Assembly (NCBI GenBank): GCA_964468795.1
Contig: CAYXWL010000001.1
Span: forward strand, 232,246 to 296,245
DNA from: an uncultured Candidatus Saccharibacteria bacterium
GTDB lineage: Bacteria; Patescibacteriota; Minisyncoccia; Phycocordibacterales; DATDWN01
DNA length: 64,000 bases
Direction of reading: 5' to 3'
The translations under genes were made by a program, and so were the position numbers. How positions within the stretch are numbered: position 1 is the first letter of the stretch; each line of letters starts with the position of its first letter. Positions 2,884 through 64,000 of this stretch are shown piece by piece. The notes beneath the pieces are model-generated. The model saw nothing but the letters and a program-made list of their open reading frames with translations. It ran no database searches and was not told where the DNA came from.

Positions 2884-3948
2884 TTATTTTAACATCCTAT
2901 CCAGACCCTTTGCATTATTACTGTATTGATATGCACTCTCGATAGTAATCTCGCCATTTCTAACAAGCTCACTTAAGTACCTGTTTAGATCAATCATGCC
3001 TTCTCCTGAAGATGTTTCTATTATCGAATTAATCTCATGAACCCTGTTCTCTCTGATAAGGTTGGCCACTGCGCTGTTATTTATTAAAAGCTCTACAGCA
3101 GGAATAAGTCCGCCTGATATCCTAGGAATGAGCCTTTGTGACAAAATTCCAATCAAGCTTCCAGAAAGCTGAGTCCTTATCTGCTCCTGCTGGATAGCAT
3201 CAAAGGAATCAAGAATTCTTTCGATGCTTCTGGCTGCATCGTTGGTGTGCAGAGTTGAAAAGACCAAATGTCCTGTTTCCGCGGCAGTAACAGCTGTTGA
3301 CATATCTTCAGGTGAACGCATTTCTCCAATCATGATAACGTCAACGTCTTGCCTGAATGTTCCCCTGAGGCCAGCGTGGAAATCTGGCGTGTCCTGCAAG
3401 ACTTCTCGCTGATCAATGATTGATTTTTTTGATTCAAAAATATATTCGATCGGATCTTCAATTGTAATAATATGCTCGAATCTGTCTTGATTGATCCTTT
3501 CAATCATGGAGGCGAGAGTAGTGCTTTTGCCCTGTCCTGTAGGACCTACAACCAAAAAGAATCCCTGCTGTTTGGCTGTAAATGTTTCGATAATAGAAGG
3601 CAGGTTAAGCTCTGCAAAAGTCTTTATCTGCTTAGGAATGAGCCTCAAGGCTACGCTCATTTTCCCTACTTGAAAATATGCATTTCCTCTGAATCTCGTG
3701 CCGGTCTGATCATAAGCAAAATCCACCTCTTTCTTATCAATAAAAATTTCCTTTTTGGAATCGTCGAGCAAAACATCTAAAATGCCTTTCATGTCCTGCT
3801 TTGTCAGGACATGGCTGTTCGTCATAGGAATAAGTGTGCCGGATACTCGAATAATAGGCTGTCTGCCTTCAGACAAATGAAGGTCGGATGCATTTTCAGA
3901 AATCAAAATTGAAATCAGGCTTTCGATTGTTTTTTTGTAATCCGACAT
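2884..3948 (-). CDS. pilT: twitching-motility retraction ATPase
   Basis: 354 aa. Walker A GPTGQGKST, Asp box and His box (TLHTNDA) typical of PilT. Confidence 0.9.
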   Translation of the reverse strand: MSDYKKTIESLISILISENASDLHLSEGRQPIIRVSGTLIPMTNSHVLTKQDMKGILDVLLDDSKKEIFIDKKEVDFAYDQTGTRFRGNAYFQVGKMSVALRLIPKQIKTFAELNLPSIIETFTAKQQGFFLVVGPTGQGKSTTLASMIERINQDRFEHIITIEDPIEYIFESKKSIIDQREVLQDTPDFHAGLRGTFRQDVDVIMIGEMRSPEDMSTAVTAAETGHLVFSTLHTNDAARSIERILDSFDAIQQEQIRTQLSGSLIGILSQRLIPRISGGLIPAVELLINNSAVANLIRENRVHEINSIIETSSGEGMIDLNRYLSELVRNGEITIESAYQYSNNAKGLDRMLK

Positions 3949-4349: not shown

Positions 4350-6065
4350 TTATACCATGTTAACTTCTTCGAAAGGAATTACTTGATTCATTGATTTGAT
4401 AATTGCATCTTCTTTCATAGACAACATTCCTTTTGATCTTGCTATCTTGGCTATTTCTATCTCATCGAGATTTTTTAGAATTGCAGTTTCAATATCCTTA
4501 TCCATTTCAAGCACTTCCATAACCGCAATTCTCCCTCGAGTTCCGTTAGGACAATCCTGCGTTTGTCCTGCTTTGTAAACTTTGTCTGTAAACTCAAGAT
4601 CTTTTTTGTATTGAGGAGGAAGATCGCTGAACTGCTTGTCTATCATAGCCTTGATGCTTCCTTCTACCTCTACAGGCACTCCGGCATTAGGACAGAGTTT
4701 TGATGCAAGTCTTTGAGCAATCGCCAATACCAAAGTCGGAGCAATAAGATACGGATCAACACCCATATCCAAAAGCCTTGGTATCACTCCTACGGCTCCG
4801 TTGGTGTGGATAGTTGAAAACACCAAGTGTCCAGTAAGGGCAGCTTGAATAGCCAGCTGAGCTGTTTCCTTGTCTCGAATCTCACCCACCATGATAATGT
4901 CCGGGTCCTGCCTCAATGTTGTTCTAAGACCTGAAGCAAAGGTGTAACCTATATCAGGCTGAACTTGAGACTGTGAAAGTCCTTCGATGTTGTATTCGAT
5001 AGGGTCTTCAAGCGAAAGCACGTTTTGATGTTCCCTATCAAGCTCGTTGAGCATAGAATACAAAGTCGTGGTTTTTCCCGATCCAGTAGGACCAGAGATT
5101 AGGACTAGGCCGTATGGCTTCTTGATAGCTTCCTTGATGAGCTTTAGATTTCGCTTGCTCAAGCCAAGCTCATCCAGCTTCTTAACGCCTTTCTCCTGAT
5201 CCAAAAGTCGCATCACAACCTTTTCTCCGAAATAAGTTGGAAATGTGGAGACTCGAAAGTCGATTTTTCTGTCCTCCACCTTTGTCGTAAATCTTCCGTC
5301 CTGAGGCTTCCTTTTTTCGTCTAACCTCATGTTAGAAAGAATTTTAATTCTGGCTACCACAGCAGCATGCACTCTCGAAGGAAGTGTGAGGCTGGTGTTC
5401 ATTTCACCATCAACTCGGAATCTCACTTTGACCTGCTCTCTCCATGGTTCAATATGGATGTCTGAGGCATTGCCGTCAGTAGCATATCGCAAAATTGTTG
5501 CTACGATTTTTGTTACGGGAGCATCCTCGGAAATCTGATTTCCTTGTATAACCTCCTGCTCAAGCTCAGCCTGTTCAGCCTTGTCTTTTTCCGACTTAAG
5601 CTCAACTTCAAGTTCGGAAAGGGATTTTGAGACTTCAGCTGTAAGACCTTTGTATAGTGAAAAAACTTTTGTAAAATCATCTTCGCTGACCAGATATATC
5701 TTAAAAGGCATCTGAACCTTTGAAGCAATAAAGTTCAAAGCGTCTCTCGCTTCCATGTCATCTGGATCAACCATGCCAACCTCCAGCACGCCCTTTTTTA
5801 CTCCGATCGGAACAAACTTGTAGTGGGAAGCGGAATCTTCTGGAATATAGTGCAATATCTTGTCGCCAATCTCATGCTCATTGACTGTTCTAGTTGGTAT
5901 GTCGAAATATTCGCCCTTGGCTAGCAAAATTTCCTGAGGAGATACTCCTTTTTTAATTAAAGCCTCTTCAATAGTTACATTAGACGAAACAGACTCATTT
6001 GTAATAAGCTCTGCTGTTTTTTGATCTATTATTCCTTTTTCTGCCAGTATCTTTAATATATCCAT
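4350..6065 (-). CDS. pilB: type IV pilus assembly ATPase (GspE/PilB family)
   Basis: 571 aa. Walker A GPTGSGKTTT, T2SS-E N-terminal domain, C-terminal tetracysteine-like region. Confidence 0.9.
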   Translation of the reverse strand: MDILKILAEKGIIDQKTAELITNESVSSNVTIEEALIKKGVSPQEILLAKGEYFDIPTRTVNEHEIGDKILHYIPEDSASHYKFVPIGVKKGVLEVGMVDPDDMEARDALNFIASKVQMPFKIYLVSEDDFTKVFSLYKGLTAEVSKSLSELEVELKSEKDKAEQAELEQEVIQGNQISEDAPVTKIVATILRYATDGNASDIHIEPWREQVKVRFRVDGEMNTSLTLPSRVHAAVVARIKILSNMRLDEKRKPQDGRFTTKVEDRKIDFRVSTFPTYFGEKVVMRLLDQEKGVKKLDELGLSKRNLKLIKEAIKKPYGLVLISGPTGSGKTTTLYSMLNELDREHQNVLSLEDPIEYNIEGLSQSQVQPDIGYTFASGLRTTLRQDPDIIMVGEIRDKETAQLAIQAALTGHLVFSTIHTNGAVGVIPRLLDMGVDPYLIAPTLVLAIAQRLASKLCPNAGVPVEVEGSIKAMIDKQFSDLPPQYKKDLEFTDKVYKAGQTQDCPNGTRGRIAVMEVLEMDKDIETAILKNLDEIEIAKIARSKGMLSMKEDAIIKSMNQVIPFEEVNMV

Positions 6066-8918: not shown

Positions 8919-9575
8919 ATGTTGAAAAGTTTATTGGATTTTCTGAAAAAAATAGCGGATGAAATTGCTCCAAAAAGGAAGGATTTTGAAATTGTAAAAA
9001 ATTTATCAGAAAATGAAATCGAAAATCTGCCTAAAAGCCCTTCGCCTCTTGGAATGGACTGGATAAAACCTTTATTTAAGTACAAAAATAGAATTGTCCA
9101 AGCCATTATTTGGGAACTTAAATACAAAGAAAATACATTGCCATTAGGTGTTATTGGAAAAATGATGTATGAGGAAATAATTGAGCTGATGTCAGAAATC
9201 ATGATGTTTGACAGCGATGCTGAGTTTTTGTTAATACCGATACCTATTACGCCCGAGAGAAGAAGCGAAAGGGGCTACAACCAAAGCGAATATATTGCCA
9301 AAGCCATATTGGAAAATGATTCCGGTCATTTCCTACTATACGCTCCGCAATGGTTTGAAAAAATAAAAGAGACTCATAGGCAAAGCCACAGCCGAAACAA
9401 GGAGGAAAGAATGCATAACCTGATGGATTGCTTTAGGGCTGATAACAGAGTCTCCGGAAAATATGTTATTTTAATTGACGACGTTACCACAACCGGAAGC
9501 ACTCTGTATGAAGCAAAGAAATCTATTATTTCTGGAGGAGCAAAAAATGTCTACGCATTTACCATTGCTCATTAA
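8919..9575 (+). CDS. comFC: ComF-family phosphoribosyltransferase-domain protein
   Basis: C-terminal PRTase motif VILIDDVTTTGSTL and RGYNQSE motif. Confidence 0.75.
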   Translation: MLKSLLDFLKKIADEIAPKRKDFEIVKNLSENEIENLPKSPSPLGMDWIKPLFKYKNRIVQAIIWELKYKENTLPLGVIGKMMYEEIIELMSEIMMFDSDAEFLLIPIPITPERRSERGYNQSEYIAKAILENDSGHFLLYAPQWFEKIKETHRQSHSRNKEERMHNLMDCFRADNRVSGKYVILIDDVTTTGSTLYEAKKSIISGGAKNVYAFTIAH

Positions 9576-55649: not shown

Positions 55650-55717
55650 TGTTATTAAAAAAGCTTTTTCAAGCTCAAACTACACTATCAAAACTCGTGT
55701 ATAAAGTCAAACAAAAT

Positions 55718-55745
55718 GCCCGGGTCTCCTTTCGGAGACCCGGGC
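55718..55745 (-). terminator. strong intrinsic terminator inside the spc operon
   Basis: Minus strand GCCCGGGTCTCCgaaaGGAGACCCGGGC + ATTTTGTTT. Confidence 0.7.
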
Positions 55746-55755
55746 ACAGACAGAA

Positions 55756-56412
55756 CTACAAGCCCACACGAAGTACGAGTCTTGCTTCTTCGAGCTTGTG
55801 CCGAGCAGGACCATTCCCAAACTTCTCGACCTGCTCCTCGAGGTTCATGCCTGTGTTAAATGACATGACGAATGGGACATTCAGACGGGAATCCCGTTCG
55901 ACAATGTACCGGAAGGCATTGTCGAAGGTCTCGCGAGAGATCTGATTCGCACTAATCTTGGTGATCTTAAAAGCAACTTCCGCCAAGATATTACGAAGCT
56001 CATAGTCTGTTCCTGTAAATGCAGGCACCAGATCCTTGCGCTTGGAAAAAGTGAAGGTCTGATCTACCCACACTTGCGGTCGCGTTGTTTTGTATTTTGC
56101 GACCATTCCGGGTTCAGACAAATTATCCTGAATATACCGGTAAGCATCAAGAGCTTCGACAAATGCTGAGTAGAGGGTAATTGCTGTAACCCCCTTCACC
56201 TCATTCATAACGAAGAGTGGATTATGCTCGCAAGCATATCGGAACATGCGCTTCTCGAAAAGATTTTCACGCCATCTTCGAGGAAGACGACGCAAATACC
56301 TGATCCCTTTCGGAACCGCCCACATCACGGAAAGGAACAGCCCCGTGCTCCAGAAGAGCAGACCGAAGTAAATAACAAGCCAGCCAGCCCTGTACAAGTT
56401 GTAAAGGTCCAT
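55756..56412 (-). CDS. hypothetical membrane-anchored protein (218 aa) in a GC-richer cassette
   Basis: N-terminal TM pair (WLVIYFGLLFWSTGLFLSVMWAV). ATG after GATGGAGGCAGT. No motif recognised. Confidence 0.6.
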   Translation of the reverse strand: MDLYNLYRAGWLVIYFGLLFWSTGLFLSVMWAVPKGIRYLRRLPRRWRENLFEKRMFRYACEHNPLFVMNEVKGVTAITLYSAFVEALDAYRYIQDNLSEPGMVAKYKTTRPQVWVDQTFTFSKRKDLVPAFTGTDYELRNILAEVAFKITKISANQISRETFDNAFRYIVERDSRLNVPFVMSFNTGMNLEEQVEKFGNGPARHKLEEARLVLRVGL

Positions 56413-56490
56413 ACTGCCTCCATCTGTACCAATCCTAGTCCTACGCTCCTCAAAATGAGGAGTGTGGCTGGTAGTACAGATTTGTAATAT

Positions 56491-56520
56491 ATTATATCAC
56501 TATTTGTACTGTAGTGTCAA
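56491..56520 (-). promoter_or_regulatory. consensus sigma70 promoter of the cassette
   Basis: Minus strand TTGACA-18 nt-TATAAT, followed by a ~80-nt hairpin-containing leader. Confidence 0.55.
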
Positions 56521-56700
56521 TATATCCCTGATAAAGAAAAAACTCCATTTATGGAGTTTTTTCTTTACACGAGTTTGTCGTTCTGAGGATTTTTGCTAGA
56601 GTTCGAGGTGGGAGTGCGGATTGCGACCAAGCTGTACAAGTAGTATTGCGCGGGAGCAAACGCAAGCGACAAACAAAGAAATCGAGCAAAAAGACCAGAA

Positions 56701-60400: not shown

Positions 60401-60646
60401 CTAGGTGGGATCATAAATCCTTACAAGTGCAGTACACCGCGTACAATGCACCTCGCCTAGCCTAGTTACTGGATCTACATTTACTATCTTGTGCTCTTGA
60501 GGAGTAGACGAGCATACGGGACAGTTCTTTCCATCAATCGGAATGGCCTGCGTACCGAACTCTGTTCTCCATATGGCAACAAACCCAGCTTCACCAACTG
60601 CTCTTGCAAGAGCTTCGAGCATCCTGCCTCTCTTGGTTTCTTCCAT
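60401..60646 (-). CDS. small zinc-ribbon-like protein (81 aa) in a GC-richer cassette between rplB and rpsS
   Basis: CPVC..(22 aa)..CTRC. ATG after AATCGGAGGAATC. Flanked by terminators (60749-60797 and 60369-60392) and promoter-like TTGACT-17-TTAAAT. Confidence 0.55.
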   Translation of the reverse strand: MEETKRGRMLEALARAVGEAGFVAIWRTEFGTQAIPIDGKNCPVCSSTPQEHKIVNVDPVTRLGEVHCTRCTALVRIYDPT

Positions 60647-61976: not shown

Positions 61977-62642
61977 TTACTTTGAAAGCTTCGTTGCTAT
62001 CTGAGGGAGACCCTTCTCAGGGTTTGAGATAACGACGTACTTGTACTTCATAAGGTCGACCGGATTCATGTTTCGGATCTCATCTACGACAAGATTGCCG
62101 AAATTTCGAAGACTCTTCTCAGTGTTCGCATCCTTGCTTGAAAGAGCGATCAATGCTGAGTTCTTTCGCTTGCTGACGAGGTCAGTAAAGCCCTTTACTT
62201 TTGCGAGTGTAGACAGAGCTACCTTTGCATCCTTTGTCTTTGGAGCCTTAAATGAAATATCATCAACAAAGAGCACCTTCCCATCCTTGTACTTTGCAGA
62301 CAAGATAGTATAGAGGGCCTTAGCCTTCATCTTCTTGTTTACCTTTCGAGTATAGTCCTTGTCGTTTCGAGGGCCATGTGTAATACCTCCGTGTCGCCAG
62401 AGTGGAGATCGTGTAGAACCGTGTCGCGCTCGGCCTGTTCCTTTCTGCTGCCATGGCTTCTTTCCTCCTCCAGATACTTCTCCTCGAGTCTTTGTGTGAG
62501 CAACGTTTGTTCTGCTTGATGATTCCATTGAAACAACAACCTGGTGCACCAAGTCAGCATTCCAAGGTAGTCCGAAAACAGACTCAGGTAGCTTTACTTT
62601 TCCTGCCTCCTTTCCTTGTAGATTGTAGATTACGCTTTCCAT
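61977..62642 (-). CDS. rplD: 50S ribosomal protein L4
   Basis: 221 aa. GGGKKPWQQKGTGRARHGS. Confidence 0.9.
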   Translation of the reverse strand: MESVIYNLQGKEAGKVKLPESVFGLPWNADLVHQVVVSMESSSRTNVAHTKTRGEVSGGGKKPWQQKGTGRARHGSTRSPLWRHGGITHGPRNDKDYTRKVNKKMKAKALYTILSAKYKDGKVLFVDDISFKAPKTKDAKVALSTLAKVKGFTDLVSKRKNSALIALSSKDANTEKSLRNFGNLVVDEIRNMNPVDLMKYKYVVISNPEKGLPQIATKLSK

Positions 62643-62656
62643 AGTTATGTATTTAA

Positions 62657-63268
62657 TTAGCCTCGCACTTCTACGACTGTTCCTCGTCGTCCTGGAACTG
62701 CACCTCGGATAAAGAGTTCTCCTGTCTCCTTGTTTATTGAAACAATAGTGAGATTCTTTGTGGTGATCTTCACCCCTCCCATTCGGCCGGCCATTCTCTT
62801 TCCTTTAGCAACTCGGCCTCCGTCTCGTCCAGCACCTCCAATAGATCCTGGCTCTCGCTCTGAGTGCTTCTGACCGTGCGATCGTGGTCCTCCTGCGAAA
62901 CCATGTCGCTTAACCACACCCTGGAATCCCTTTCCCTTTGAGATGCTTGAAACTGTTACCTTGTCTCCAGCAGCAAAAGCAGATAGGTCAACCTTGTCTC
63001 CAAGATTAAGGGTAGAGTCACCTTCAACTCGCATCTCCTTTAGATGAGCGAACTTTCCCTCTTTCATGTGGCCAGAAAGCGCCTTGTTGATGTTCTTAGC
63101 AGAACGAGTACCGAAACCAAACTGCACAGCAGAATAGCCATCTTTTGCAGATGTCTTCACCTGAGTCACTGTCATTGGACCAGCCTTAACGACAGTTACA
63201 GGATGCACAACTCCCTCAGCATCGAAGATCTGAGTCATGTTTACTTTTGTTCCGAGGATGAATTTCAT
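62657..63268 (-). CDS. rplC: 50S ribosomal protein L3
   Basis: 203 aa. GTKVNMTQIF..KGKGFQGVVKRHGF. Confidence 0.9.
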   Translation of the reverse strand: MKFILGTKVNMTQIFDAEGVVHPVTVVKAGPMTVTQVKTSAKDGYSAVQFGFGTRSAKNINKALSGHMKEGKFAHLKEMRVEGDSTLNLGDKVDLSAFAAGDKVTVSSISKGKGFQGVVKRHGFAGGPRSHGQKHSEREPGSIGGAGRDGGRVAKGKRMAGRMGGVKITTKNLTIVSINKETGELFIRGAVPGRRGTVVEVRG

Positions 63269-63454
63269 TGTATTTCTGGTGACGGTTTGCGGACAGTAAT
63301 GCGAGGAGAATCCTCACAACATTGCTCTTTACTAGCCACCCATTTAAAAAAGCCTTTTCGGCGTTTGCCTACTGTAGCAGATATCGTTTTTTATTTCAAG
63401 TGCTATTTGACTCAATCTGTAAAAATCTATATTGTTCTGCCAGAGGTATCGAAC

Positions 63455-63730
63455 ATGCTTGGTAATCTGTTCTTTTGGAGCTACCTTCTTTTGGGAGCTC
63501 TCATGGCTCTCGTATGCTTCTTTATCCTAAGAGATGACTTTGCCCTCCAAGAGGAGCTGGAAACGATCCGGGCTTCCAGCCTCATTGCCGGATTCAGCTT
63601 CGTTCTGGCAGGCCTTGCAATTGCATTCTGGCTCCGAAATCTAGCCTCCTTTACAGTTTGGGGGTCCGCTACCGCATGCTACTGGATGCATATCTTGCTT
63701 GTACTCAGAGCACGGGCATCGAAAAAATAA
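63455..63730 (+). CDS. small 3-TM membrane protein (91 aa) in a cassette between rplC and rpsJ, antisense to the operon
   Basis: Promoter TTGACT(63407)-17-TATTGT, AGAGG RBS, two terminators after the stop (TCGTCCGGaacgcCCGGACGA; AAACCACCgagaatGGTGGTTTTTT). Only the last third of track ORF 63044..63730 is used. Confidence 0.5.
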   Translation: MLGNLFFWSYLLLGALMALVCFFILRDDFALQEELETIRASSLIAGFSFVLAGLAIAFWLRNLASFTVWGSATACYWMHILLVLRARASKK

Positions 63731-63803
63731 ACGTTACTCAATCGTCCGGAACGCCCGGACGATTTCTCGTACAATAAAACCACCGAGAATGGTGGTTTTT
63801 TGA

Positions 63804-63848
63804 TTAGATTATCTTTACGTCGATGTTGACTCCTGACGGAAGCGATGC
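63804..63848 (-). pseudogene. rpsJ: 3'-terminal remnant of rpsJ (S10): last 14 codons only
   Basis: Own translation ASLPSGVNIDVKII* matches the conserved S10 C-terminus (..LDLPSGVDIEIKL in B. subtilis, from memory). An in-frame TAA lies immediately upstream, and no S10-like frame continues. Confidence 0.6.
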
Positions 63849-63892
63849 TTATACACACGTTCTCTATCTAAGGCAGTGTCACATAACGTCAA

Positions 63893-63921
63893 TTGACATT
63901 TATAAGTAAATAGAGTATAAT
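63893..63921 (+). promoter_or_regulatory. consensus promoter of a further cassette at the window edge
   Basis: TTGACA-17 nt-TATAAT. The AAATAGaGTATAAT segment resembles the 56491-56520 promoter (AAATAGtGaTATAAT). Confidence 0.5.
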
Positions 63922-63965
63922 TATAAAAGATAAAATTTCGATCTTTCTCAAGAAAGGAGAGAAGG

Positions 63966-64000
63966 ATGGCTCAATCTGCCCATGATTTTGACAGTCAATT
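63966..64000 (+). CDS. 5' end of an unknown ORF (runs off the window)
   Basis: AAAGGAGAGAAGG-ATG GCT CAA TCT GCC CAT GAT (MAQSAHDFDSQ..). Confidence 0.35.
   Translation, partial: MAQSAHDFDSQ

Follow-up and report, generated by a model that had tools for sequence, protein, structure and literature searches.

An intact rpsJ and its displaced tail beside a probable foreign insert in the ribosomal-protein cluster of an uncultured patescibacterium

The window analysed here is a stretch of 64,000 nucleotides (nt) from an uncultured Candidatus Saccharibacteria bacterium (GTDB lineage Patescibacteriota; Minisyncoccia; Phycocordibacterales; assembly GCA_964468795.1, contig CAYXWL010000001.1, positions 232,246 to 296,245), whose list of open reading frames (ORFs) places on the minus strand the S10/spc ribosomal-protein cluster of a patescibacterial (CPR) genome, Paceibacteria, Zambryskibacteria or Minisyncoccia in type. 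At the edge of the window, upstream of rplC, only a small piece of rpsJ, the gene for ribosomal protein S10, can be seen, and a preliminary description of this DNA had concluded that the gene was reduced to its last 14 codons. We report that rpsJ is intact just past the window and that the apparent truncation is an artefact of where the window ends. The 42-nt piece is very probably the old rpsJ tail, displaced by a foreign insert of about 1.1 kb that carried a replacement tail; this judgement leaves aside the route by which the insert arrived. What remains is an insertion scar of a general kind already known; for its site and clade our literature search found no earlier report.

This removes the apparent disruption of an essential single-copy gene, which had been expected to be lethal: no essential gene is disrupted. 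It is also a reminder that a gene fragment lying at the edge of a window may be the scar of an insertion. The case shows a streamlined Patescibacteria genome accepting foreign genes within its most conserved gene cluster.

Intact rpsJ and the native origin of the displaced tail

The window is extended by a public contig, L001 (ENA ERZ17987536 NODE_31, 114.5 kb), which is identical to it over 11,344 of 11,344 overlapping nt and whose position 9269 corresponds to window position 64000. A complete rpsJ of 125 codons for amino acids (aa) is located at L001 7982-8359, or would-be window positions 64910-65287. Its product matches the Pfam S10 model over the full length (E 2e-31) and ends with ...NLSLPSGVNIDVKII before the stop codon. 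The intact gene, past the window edge, is separated from the fragment inside the window by 1,064 nt. Among the possibilities raised earlier was that the rest of rpsJ lay beyond a mobile insertion; rpsJ does lie beyond an insertion, but as a complete gene with its own tail and not as a remainder.

The reverse-strand translation of 63801-63872 reads ...V, a stop codon, ASLPSGVNIDVKII and a second stop codon. Its S10 portion, at 63804-63845 on the minus strand, consists of the last 13 codons of rpsJ (SLPSGVNIDVKII) and the stop codon, 42 nt in all, and forms a direct repeat with the end of the intact gene (fragment, L001 9424-9465; partner, L001 8318-8359). The two copies, 1,106 nt apart, are identical at 39 of 42 nt (93%). 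About 2e-15 matches of this quality are expected by chance over the window, which disposes of coincidence as an explanation of the resemblance. Homology to S10 begins here at codon 113. The fragment lacks a start codon, and in frame before it come the sense codon GCA and, further upstream, TAA; it is therefore not translated as S10. The C-terminal fragment recognized in the preliminary description is accordingly real, with 13 codons and a stop in place of 14 codons: the supposed fourteenth, GCA, encodes Ala where S10 has Leu and is insert DNA, so that the junction falls at 63845/63846 and not at 63848/63849. No other S10-like sequence was found in the window.

Seen within the window alone, where only the fragment is visible, the sequence would fit a true truncation of rpsJ with a second copy elsewhere, or a junction that is an assembly chimera or a minority variant. 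We consider this extremely improbable, given the intact gene on a contig identical to the window. A Logan assembly (L006, SRR6837569), derived from another sample and with another assembler than L001, extends from tuf to rplC and agrees fully (100%) with L001 across both junctions, and L007 (SRR1027651), a slightly different strain, is identical across the right junction. All ten contigs that carry a 91-aa ORF adjacent to the fragment include at least the right-hand insert junction (10/10). That assemblies made independently from several samples agree on this structure to the base contradicts both a chimeric assembly and population heterogeneity, and a second rpsJ, of which the window has none, is not needed. 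No excised form was present among those ten contigs, and an exact 34-mer of fragment and native terminator, representing the empty site, gave 0 matches in JGI metagenomes; both are small samplings. Replacement of the whole intact rpsJ by a foreign gene was likewise considered and rejected: the identities of Tuf, S10, L3, L4, L23 and L2 agree, the locus L010 being the closest or among the closest relatives for each, and give no sign of it at this resolution.

The comparison with relatives, in which 165 related loci were used (L001 and 164 others), distinguishes the two tails. Among the nearest relatives, in L010, L011, L015, L016 and L171, a terminator of the form TCAAAAACCACC-loop-GGTGGTTTTTGA stands directly 3' of the rpsJ stop codon. 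In the present genome this type of terminator (TAATCAAAAAACCACCattctcGGTGGTTTT; TCAAAAAACCACC) adjoins the fragment and not the intact gene; it is located at 63776-63799, is predicted by RNAfold to fold as AAAACCACC-loop-GGTGGTTTT, and would be usable in both directions. Fragment and terminator together are 87.5% identical to L015 over 64 nt and 83% identical to L171 over 72 nt. Because the fragment is still joined to the rpsJ terminator of its relatives, it is the native rpsJ tail. A different terminator, AAACGGCCACCtgggGGTGGCCGTTT, stands behind the intact gene, with downstream sequence that includes AAACGGCCACCTGGGGGTGGCCGTTT; neither this new terminator nor any part of the 1,064-nt insert has a nucleotide or translated match in the 164 related loci.

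Two relatives illustrate the arrangement without the insert. In L171 (81% L3 identity) the site is empty: about 60 nt separate rpsJ and its terminator from the rplC promoter and rplC, all within 163 nt. In L170 (79% L3 identity) the order is rpsJ, terminator, an antisense small membrane ORF, a 70-aa ORF, promoter and leader, and rplC. Taken with the terminator that the fragment has kept, these insert-free relatives argue that the cargo gene arrived together with the new terminator and the tail that rpsJ has now.

The insert and its cargo gene

The insert is foreign to the locus. It contains the new terminator, a pseudogene that may be hydrolase-like and the promoter of that pseudogene, and its GC content is 50.6%, against 40.7% for the window and 46-48.5% for the neighbouring ribosomal genes. 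The right-hand 43 nt, between fragment and promoter (63846-63888, plus strand), have no match in any related locus, and toward the right-hand junction the insert reads ...GTGTGTATAAGCA. Two short public contigs (Logan SRR6837549 and ENA ERZ27282891) both begin exactly at window position 63888 (L001 9381), 43 nt into the insert and directly before the -35 box of the promoter; this shared start could mark a boundary that varies between strains, or simply reflect the same reads where coverage was low.

Both the consensus promoter and the plus-strand ORF leaving the window had been noticed earlier and are present as described. The promoter, TTGACA-17-TATAAT, agrees with the consensus at 12 of 12 positions (63893-63921, plus strand), is among only three perfect consensus promoters of the 64-kb window, and points toward the intact rpsJ and away from rplC. 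The ribosome-binding site (RBS; AAAGGAGAG, with GGAG) and the first 11 complete codons occupy 63953-64000 on the plus strand; the reading frame (MAQSAHDFDSQ...) starts at ATG 63966 and runs past 64000. On L001 its first piece comprises 89 aa and ends at 9034. The whole cargo gene spans about 289 codons and is interrupted by two frameshifts, in a run of five G and a run of eight A, and by a single TAG in frame. Both assemblies that span the gene (L001/L005 and L006) have the same lesions, which makes it a true pseudogene; the L007 contig reaches 298 nt into the gene, far enough to include the first frameshift. The new terminator is a hairpin with a T-rich run whichever strand is read, and would shield rpsJ from the cargo promoter.

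Searched against Pfam, the reconstructed cargo protein had no match, even at E<=10. The four best of five NCBIfam matches were to the alpha/beta hydrolases AcoC, MenH (two models) and BchO, with E values of 4e-4 to 0.03 and scores far below the cut-offs, while three of five PDB matches were to alpha/beta hydrolases (E 0.12-0.68, hence weak). An AYSEG motif is present in the reconstructed frame. The matches point, with low certainty, to an alpha/beta-hydrolase-like protein.

The insert contains no transposase ORF, no recombinase gene or remnant of one was found in its 1,064 nt, and it has no Pfam match. An insertion sequence or transposon was rejected, since the terminal motif is at chance level, the duplication measures 42 nt and a transposase ORF is lacking; the two ends of the insert have only CTTATA in common. 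Inverted repeats between the region upstream of rpsJ and the cargo promoter (I2 and I4) were also tried as one repeat and rejected, as they are not collinear and are AT-rich chance matches. Elsewhere in the 20-kb cluster, no other guest gene is flanked by a duplicated gene tail.

Recurrence of the layout, possible routes and known systems

A second S10 C-terminus occurs in only two of the 165 loci, L001 and L126 (JGI contig Ga0209542_10037860, Paceibacteria), which has the same layout with other cargo. There an intact rpsJ (3001-3366) precedes a 231-aa ORF, a gene for a PemK/MazF toxin (PF02452, E 7e-14) and a 23-codon rpsJ tail fragment (4834-4902) in which S10 homology begins at about codon 103. 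The 231-aa ORF has no Pfam match and the L126 insert has no integrase. Its two tails differ at 19 of 72 nt (74% identical), and of the 14 changed codons 13 are synonymous and one is non-synonymous (P<3e-6; 0 of 300,000 random-substitution trials). Differences that are nearly all synonymous indicate that the two tails came from different lineages, each having been a working rpsJ end, and were joined later.

The rpsJ-rplC spacer in which both inserts are found ranges in relatives (L010-L173) from about 1 to 3,556 nt and carries unrelated cargo, read from the sequences as RelE/ParE-like and HicAB-like pairs, pirin, zinc-ribbon and small antisense membrane proteins. The spacer behaves as an insertion hot spot between two predicted transcription units, and guests would be tolerated there because rpsJ and rplC are transcribed separately. 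ORFs were listed for those spacers of the 80 GTDB relatives that measure at least 400 nt, the 80 metagenome loci standing outside that listing; inspection by eye, made with no Pfam scan, found no integrase-like ORF among them. Foreign tracts have also entered the cluster itself. At the rplC/rplD boundary, L007 (about 1640-1780; window about 62590-62680) has a diverged patch of some 190 nt with a 56-nt insertion, which adds one residue to L3 and alters the N-terminus of L4, whereas the surrounding DNA is 100% identical. The comparison shows short-patch import into the cluster.

We propose that a foreign 1,064-nt segment recombined into the rpsJ tail, bringing with it the synonymously recoded last 13 codons and stop, the new terminator and a convergent cargo gene with a consensus promoter. 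An essential gene would survive insertion into its coding tail because that tail is supplied anew, at the homologous position, by the incoming DNA; rpsJ would have stayed complete and functional, with the old tail left as an untranslated relic, and the cargo gene would have decayed after arrival. Several points weigh against this history. The species is isolated, the L3 homologue search for sister strains falling from 100% identity (an identical protein is encoded by nine public contigs) directly to at most 81%, and no same-species genome lacking the insert was found in it; the polarity of the event and the boundaries of the insert consequently rest on relatives with at most 81% L3 identity. 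No donor for the insert was found. A homologue of the cargo was absent from viral contigs and from plasmids, and a search of 5.8 billion proteins also yielded none, a weak negative, since the 89-aa ORF itself (L001 9034-9303) was not returned. All three differences between the two tails are synonymous (P=0.014 under random placement), but P is estimated at about 0.06 if the changes are divided between a selected and a neutral copy, which is marginal taken alone. Synonymy in the present genome is by itself suggestive, and consistent with L126. Two further points concern the route: with tails only 74% identical in L126, a homologous crossover would sit further upstream in rpsJ, and two independent hits on the rpsJ end fit a site-specific process at least as well.

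The small number of differences bears most directly on a local origin, by which the tail was duplicated within the genome, as a long target duplication or through slippage at the arrival of the cargo, and the copies then diverged in place. A short repeat of 93% identity would suit this, and three differences are too few for synonymy alone to decide. We nevertheless regard a local origin as very unlikely. No transposase is present, terminal inverted repeats are at chance level, and we know of no transposition mechanism that gives a 42-nt target duplication. The terminator of the intact copy differs, only that of the fragment resembling those of the relatives, and the 13 synonymous changes among 14 codons in L126 are incompatible with neutral decay.

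As to how the foreign segment came to be joined to rpsJ, we would give roughly even odds to a route in which DNA was taken up from a related Paceibacterium and recombined with rpsJ as the homologous anchor, with an illegitimate right-hand join at 63845/63846. This route is favoured because no recognisable recombinase is present in either insert or, on inspection by eye, among the listed spacer ORFs, because the incoming tail is followed by an rpsJ-style terminator, as in a real rpsJ locus, because the rpsJ-rplC spacer is variable and holds unrelated cargo, and because the L007 patch shows that short foreign tracts enter the cluster. Homology-facilitated illegitimate recombination occurs in the natural transformation of Acinetobacter and Streptococcus pneumoniae. 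By analogy, rpsJ may have served here as the one conserved anchor while the other end was joined illegitimately, which would account for the replaced tail, the foreign cargo, the abrupt right junction and the lack of a recombinase gene; such an event is compatible with the sudden end of homology at 63845/63846 and with the rpsJ-style terminator behind the new tail. The term homology-facilitated illegitimate recombination is used in PMC6382021. Natural competence has been demonstrated in Saccharibacteria, another Patescibacteria lineage (PMC10187176), from which we infer that the present lineage may be competent as well.

The main alternative to uptake, held tentatively, is site-specific integration: a small element with an attachment site resembling the rpsJ tail would have integrated, its integrase being later deleted or supplied in trans, and a decayed element between its two attachment sites would remain. 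In favour of this, the insert is bordered by direct repeats of the target 3' end, and sequence brought by the element completes the gene; in L126 the same gene end was hit independently with unrelated cargo, and its 74% identical tails disfavour a simple crossover inside the tail. Integration at the 3' ends of rpsI, rpmG and rplL, and integrase-less derivatives of 1.2-13 kb, are documented (PMC7563491), and icd and icdC flanking the element e14 present the same pattern (PMC13626634). Against it, no recombinase gene or remnant fits into the 1,064-nt insert, the L126 insert has none, and none was recognized in the listed spacer ORFs as judged by eye; no viral contig in IMG/VR encodes this S10 tail. 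Homology starts at different points in the two genomes (codon 113 here, about codon 103 in L126), the terminator behind the incoming tail is typical of a chromosomal rpsJ locus, and the ten contigs include no excised form.

A close likeness is to the cryptic prophage e14 in Escherichia coli icd, where, according to PMC13626634 (citing Hill et al. 1989), the element supplies the tail and the displaced tail is kept as the icdC pseudogene. In both cases the insert lies in the 3' end of a housekeeping gene, the replacement tail differs mainly by synonymous or conservative changes, and a pseudogene fragment at the insert's far end is what is left of the displaced native tail. However, e14 measures 15 kb, encodes an integrase and excises on SOS induction, whereas the present insert measures 1.06 kb, has no recombinase or observed excised form, and is found in a Patescibacterium with rpsJ as target. 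In streptococci, integrative and conjugative elements (ICEs), integrative mobilizable elements (IMEs) and decayed derivatives of these, the cis-mobilizable elements (CIMEs), sit in the 3' ends of rpsI, rpmG, rplL and fda, and CIMEs, from 1.2 kb in size, are without recombination and transfer genes and keep both attachment sites and some cargo (PMC7563491). The targeting of the 3' end of a ribosomal-protein gene and the flanking direct repeats are shared with these. CIMEs differ in that their definition requires descent from ICEs or IMEs of the same attachment specificity and mobilization by them; no such partner was seen in the related loci, as far as the listed spacer ORFs go and by eye only, and conjugative elements of the streptococcal kind are not documented at an rpsJ site in Patescibacteria. 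Measured as an integrative element, the insert has flanking 42-nt repeats derived from the target and a replacement tail that keeps the target intact, but neither an integrase within it nor, in the small samplings made, an excised form or empty site in the population. A literature search for rpsJ as an attachment site yielded nothing relevant.

The minimal mobile elements of Neisseria are variable cassettes between two conserved genes, exchanged via flanking homology. The rpsJ-rplC spacer resembles them in holding unrelated cargo between conserved flanks, lineage by lineage, but a clean exchange through flanking homology leaves no duplicated gene tail.

A more speculative reading, to which we assign a low probability, is that the last 13 to 23 codons of rpsJ are a recurrent docking site in Paceibacteria for small integrase-less cargo cassettes, each bringing a recoded rpsJ tail. 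Such cassettes would be moved by an unrecognized trans-acting recombinase, or by circle formation and crossover with the tail as portable homology, and the present genome and L126 would then represent a class of mobile cassette not yet described in ultrasmall bacteria, and not two independent accidents. Were this true, it would point to a route of gene transfer in a group whose mobile elements are little known. The repeated use of the rpsJ tail merits follow-up, as does the new leader upstream of rplC described below.

The rplC leader, the 91-aa ORF and other guests

On the other side of the spacer, rplC (minus strand, 62657-63268) encodes ribosomal protein L3 of 203 aa (PF00297 on the identical public contig) and heads the rplC-rplD-rplW-rplB... 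transcription unit. The 135 or so nt before it are 70-78% identical in many relatives. Within this conserved stretch a promoter scan located the rplC promoter, TTGAAA-17-TGcTACAGT, at 63371-63399 on the minus strand; a similar motif is present upstream of rpsJ. Together with the leader described next, this promoter confirms, as a predicted signal, that rpsJ and rplC are transcribed separately in the clade. The promoter is followed on the same strand by a small 5' hairpin recognized by eye in the alignment (GCC-GAAAA-GGC with a U run, 63346-63362), which recurs in relatives with a varying stem, and then by a conserved structured RNA leader, supported by covariation, at 63278-63340, in which an outer helix GGUGGC/GUCACC encloses a long hairpin. 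Promoter, small hairpin and leader together occupy 63278-63401 on the minus strand (L001 9868-9991).

The leader structure was derived with RNAalifold from an alignment of 12 Paceibacteria sequences. Compensatory changes were found in 9 of 20 pairs and 95.8% of cells were paired; 0 of 500 shuffles reached the observed values, and slid controls gave 35-65%. A search of L001 7400-10100 against Rfam 15 gave no match at E<=1 except two chance-level matches to RNAI (E about 0.9). The leader is a candidate new ribosomal-protein leader. In E. coli the leader of the S10 operon is autoregulated by L4. The present case is similar in that a conserved structured 5' leader heads the rplC-rplD... block, with a hairpin and U run nearby, and differs in that the leader precedes rplC and not rpsJ and is without a sequence or Rfam match. 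It offers a testable candidate for ribosomal-protein autoregulation in the clade.

Between the native rpsJ terminator and the conserved rplC promoter is the 91-aa ORF (63455-63730, plus strand), antisense to the operon, with two clear hydrophobic segments and one marginal one. It is preceded by a promoter-like site, TTGACT-17-TATTGT (63407-63435, plus strand), found by promoter scan as a consensus match only (9/12), and followed by a predicted hairpin at 63740-63764 on the same strand (RNAfold). The ORF has no homologue in a large protein database. A weak counterpart in L170, a membrane ORF of 106 aa, is placed and oriented alike (27% identical over 71 aa, with a pairwise E of 2e-5), and L018 has a similar 94-aa ORF with a C-terminal motif in common with that of L170. 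The region 63407-63800 had been described as a plus-strand cassette with a three-segment membrane protein and two terminators. The promoter-like site, the ORF and two hairpins are there, but the third transmembrane segment is marginal, and the ORF looks, from these weak similarities, like a fast-evolving resident gene and not a cassette. The terminator of tuf (L001 7573-7604) has in common with the native rpsJ terminator (63776-63799) the design ATCAAAAAACCACC...GGTGGTTTT, which is also found in several relatives and appears to be a clade-typical bidirectional terminator motif.

The preliminary description had further related the insert to a unit between rplE and rpsN. That unit (window 55693-56573, minus strand; L001 16696-17576) has a 218-aa ORF without a family match, its own upstream terminator, a perfect TTGACA-18-TATAAT promoter and a downstream terminator, and is bracketed by the imperfect inverted repeat CTCGTGTAAAG ... 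CTTTATACACGAG. The resemblance of its terminal inverted repeat to the end of the present insert did not hold: CTTATACACACG, allowing up to two mismatches, has 5 matches against 2.8 expected, 13 of 100 shuffles equal this, and the rplE-rpsN motif matches the proposed terminus only when an indel is permitted. The promoter string that the two share, GTA[C]AAATAG.G[A]TATAAT, does exist, and both promoters that contain it are among the three perfect consensus promoters of the window; it concerns two sequences only and is indistinguishable from coincidence. With the terminal repeat at chance level, the view of the two as related mobile elements is not supported.

Guest ORFs are also found elsewhere in the cluster. 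Between rplB and rpsS (window 60401-60646, minus strand) there is an 81-aa ORF with CxxC...CxxC motifs and weak zinc-ribbon matches, and L170 has a 114-aa guest ORF at the matching position. Past the window edge, in the str/S10 cluster, guest proteins of 166 aa, 596 aa and 96 aa are encoded between fusA and tuf (L001 3375-6037), the last with a weak match to DUF5663; in L170, too, a DUF5663 gene directly precedes tuf. The tuf-rpsJ spacer (L001 7638-7868) holds a GC-rich 76-aa ORF that contains cysteines.

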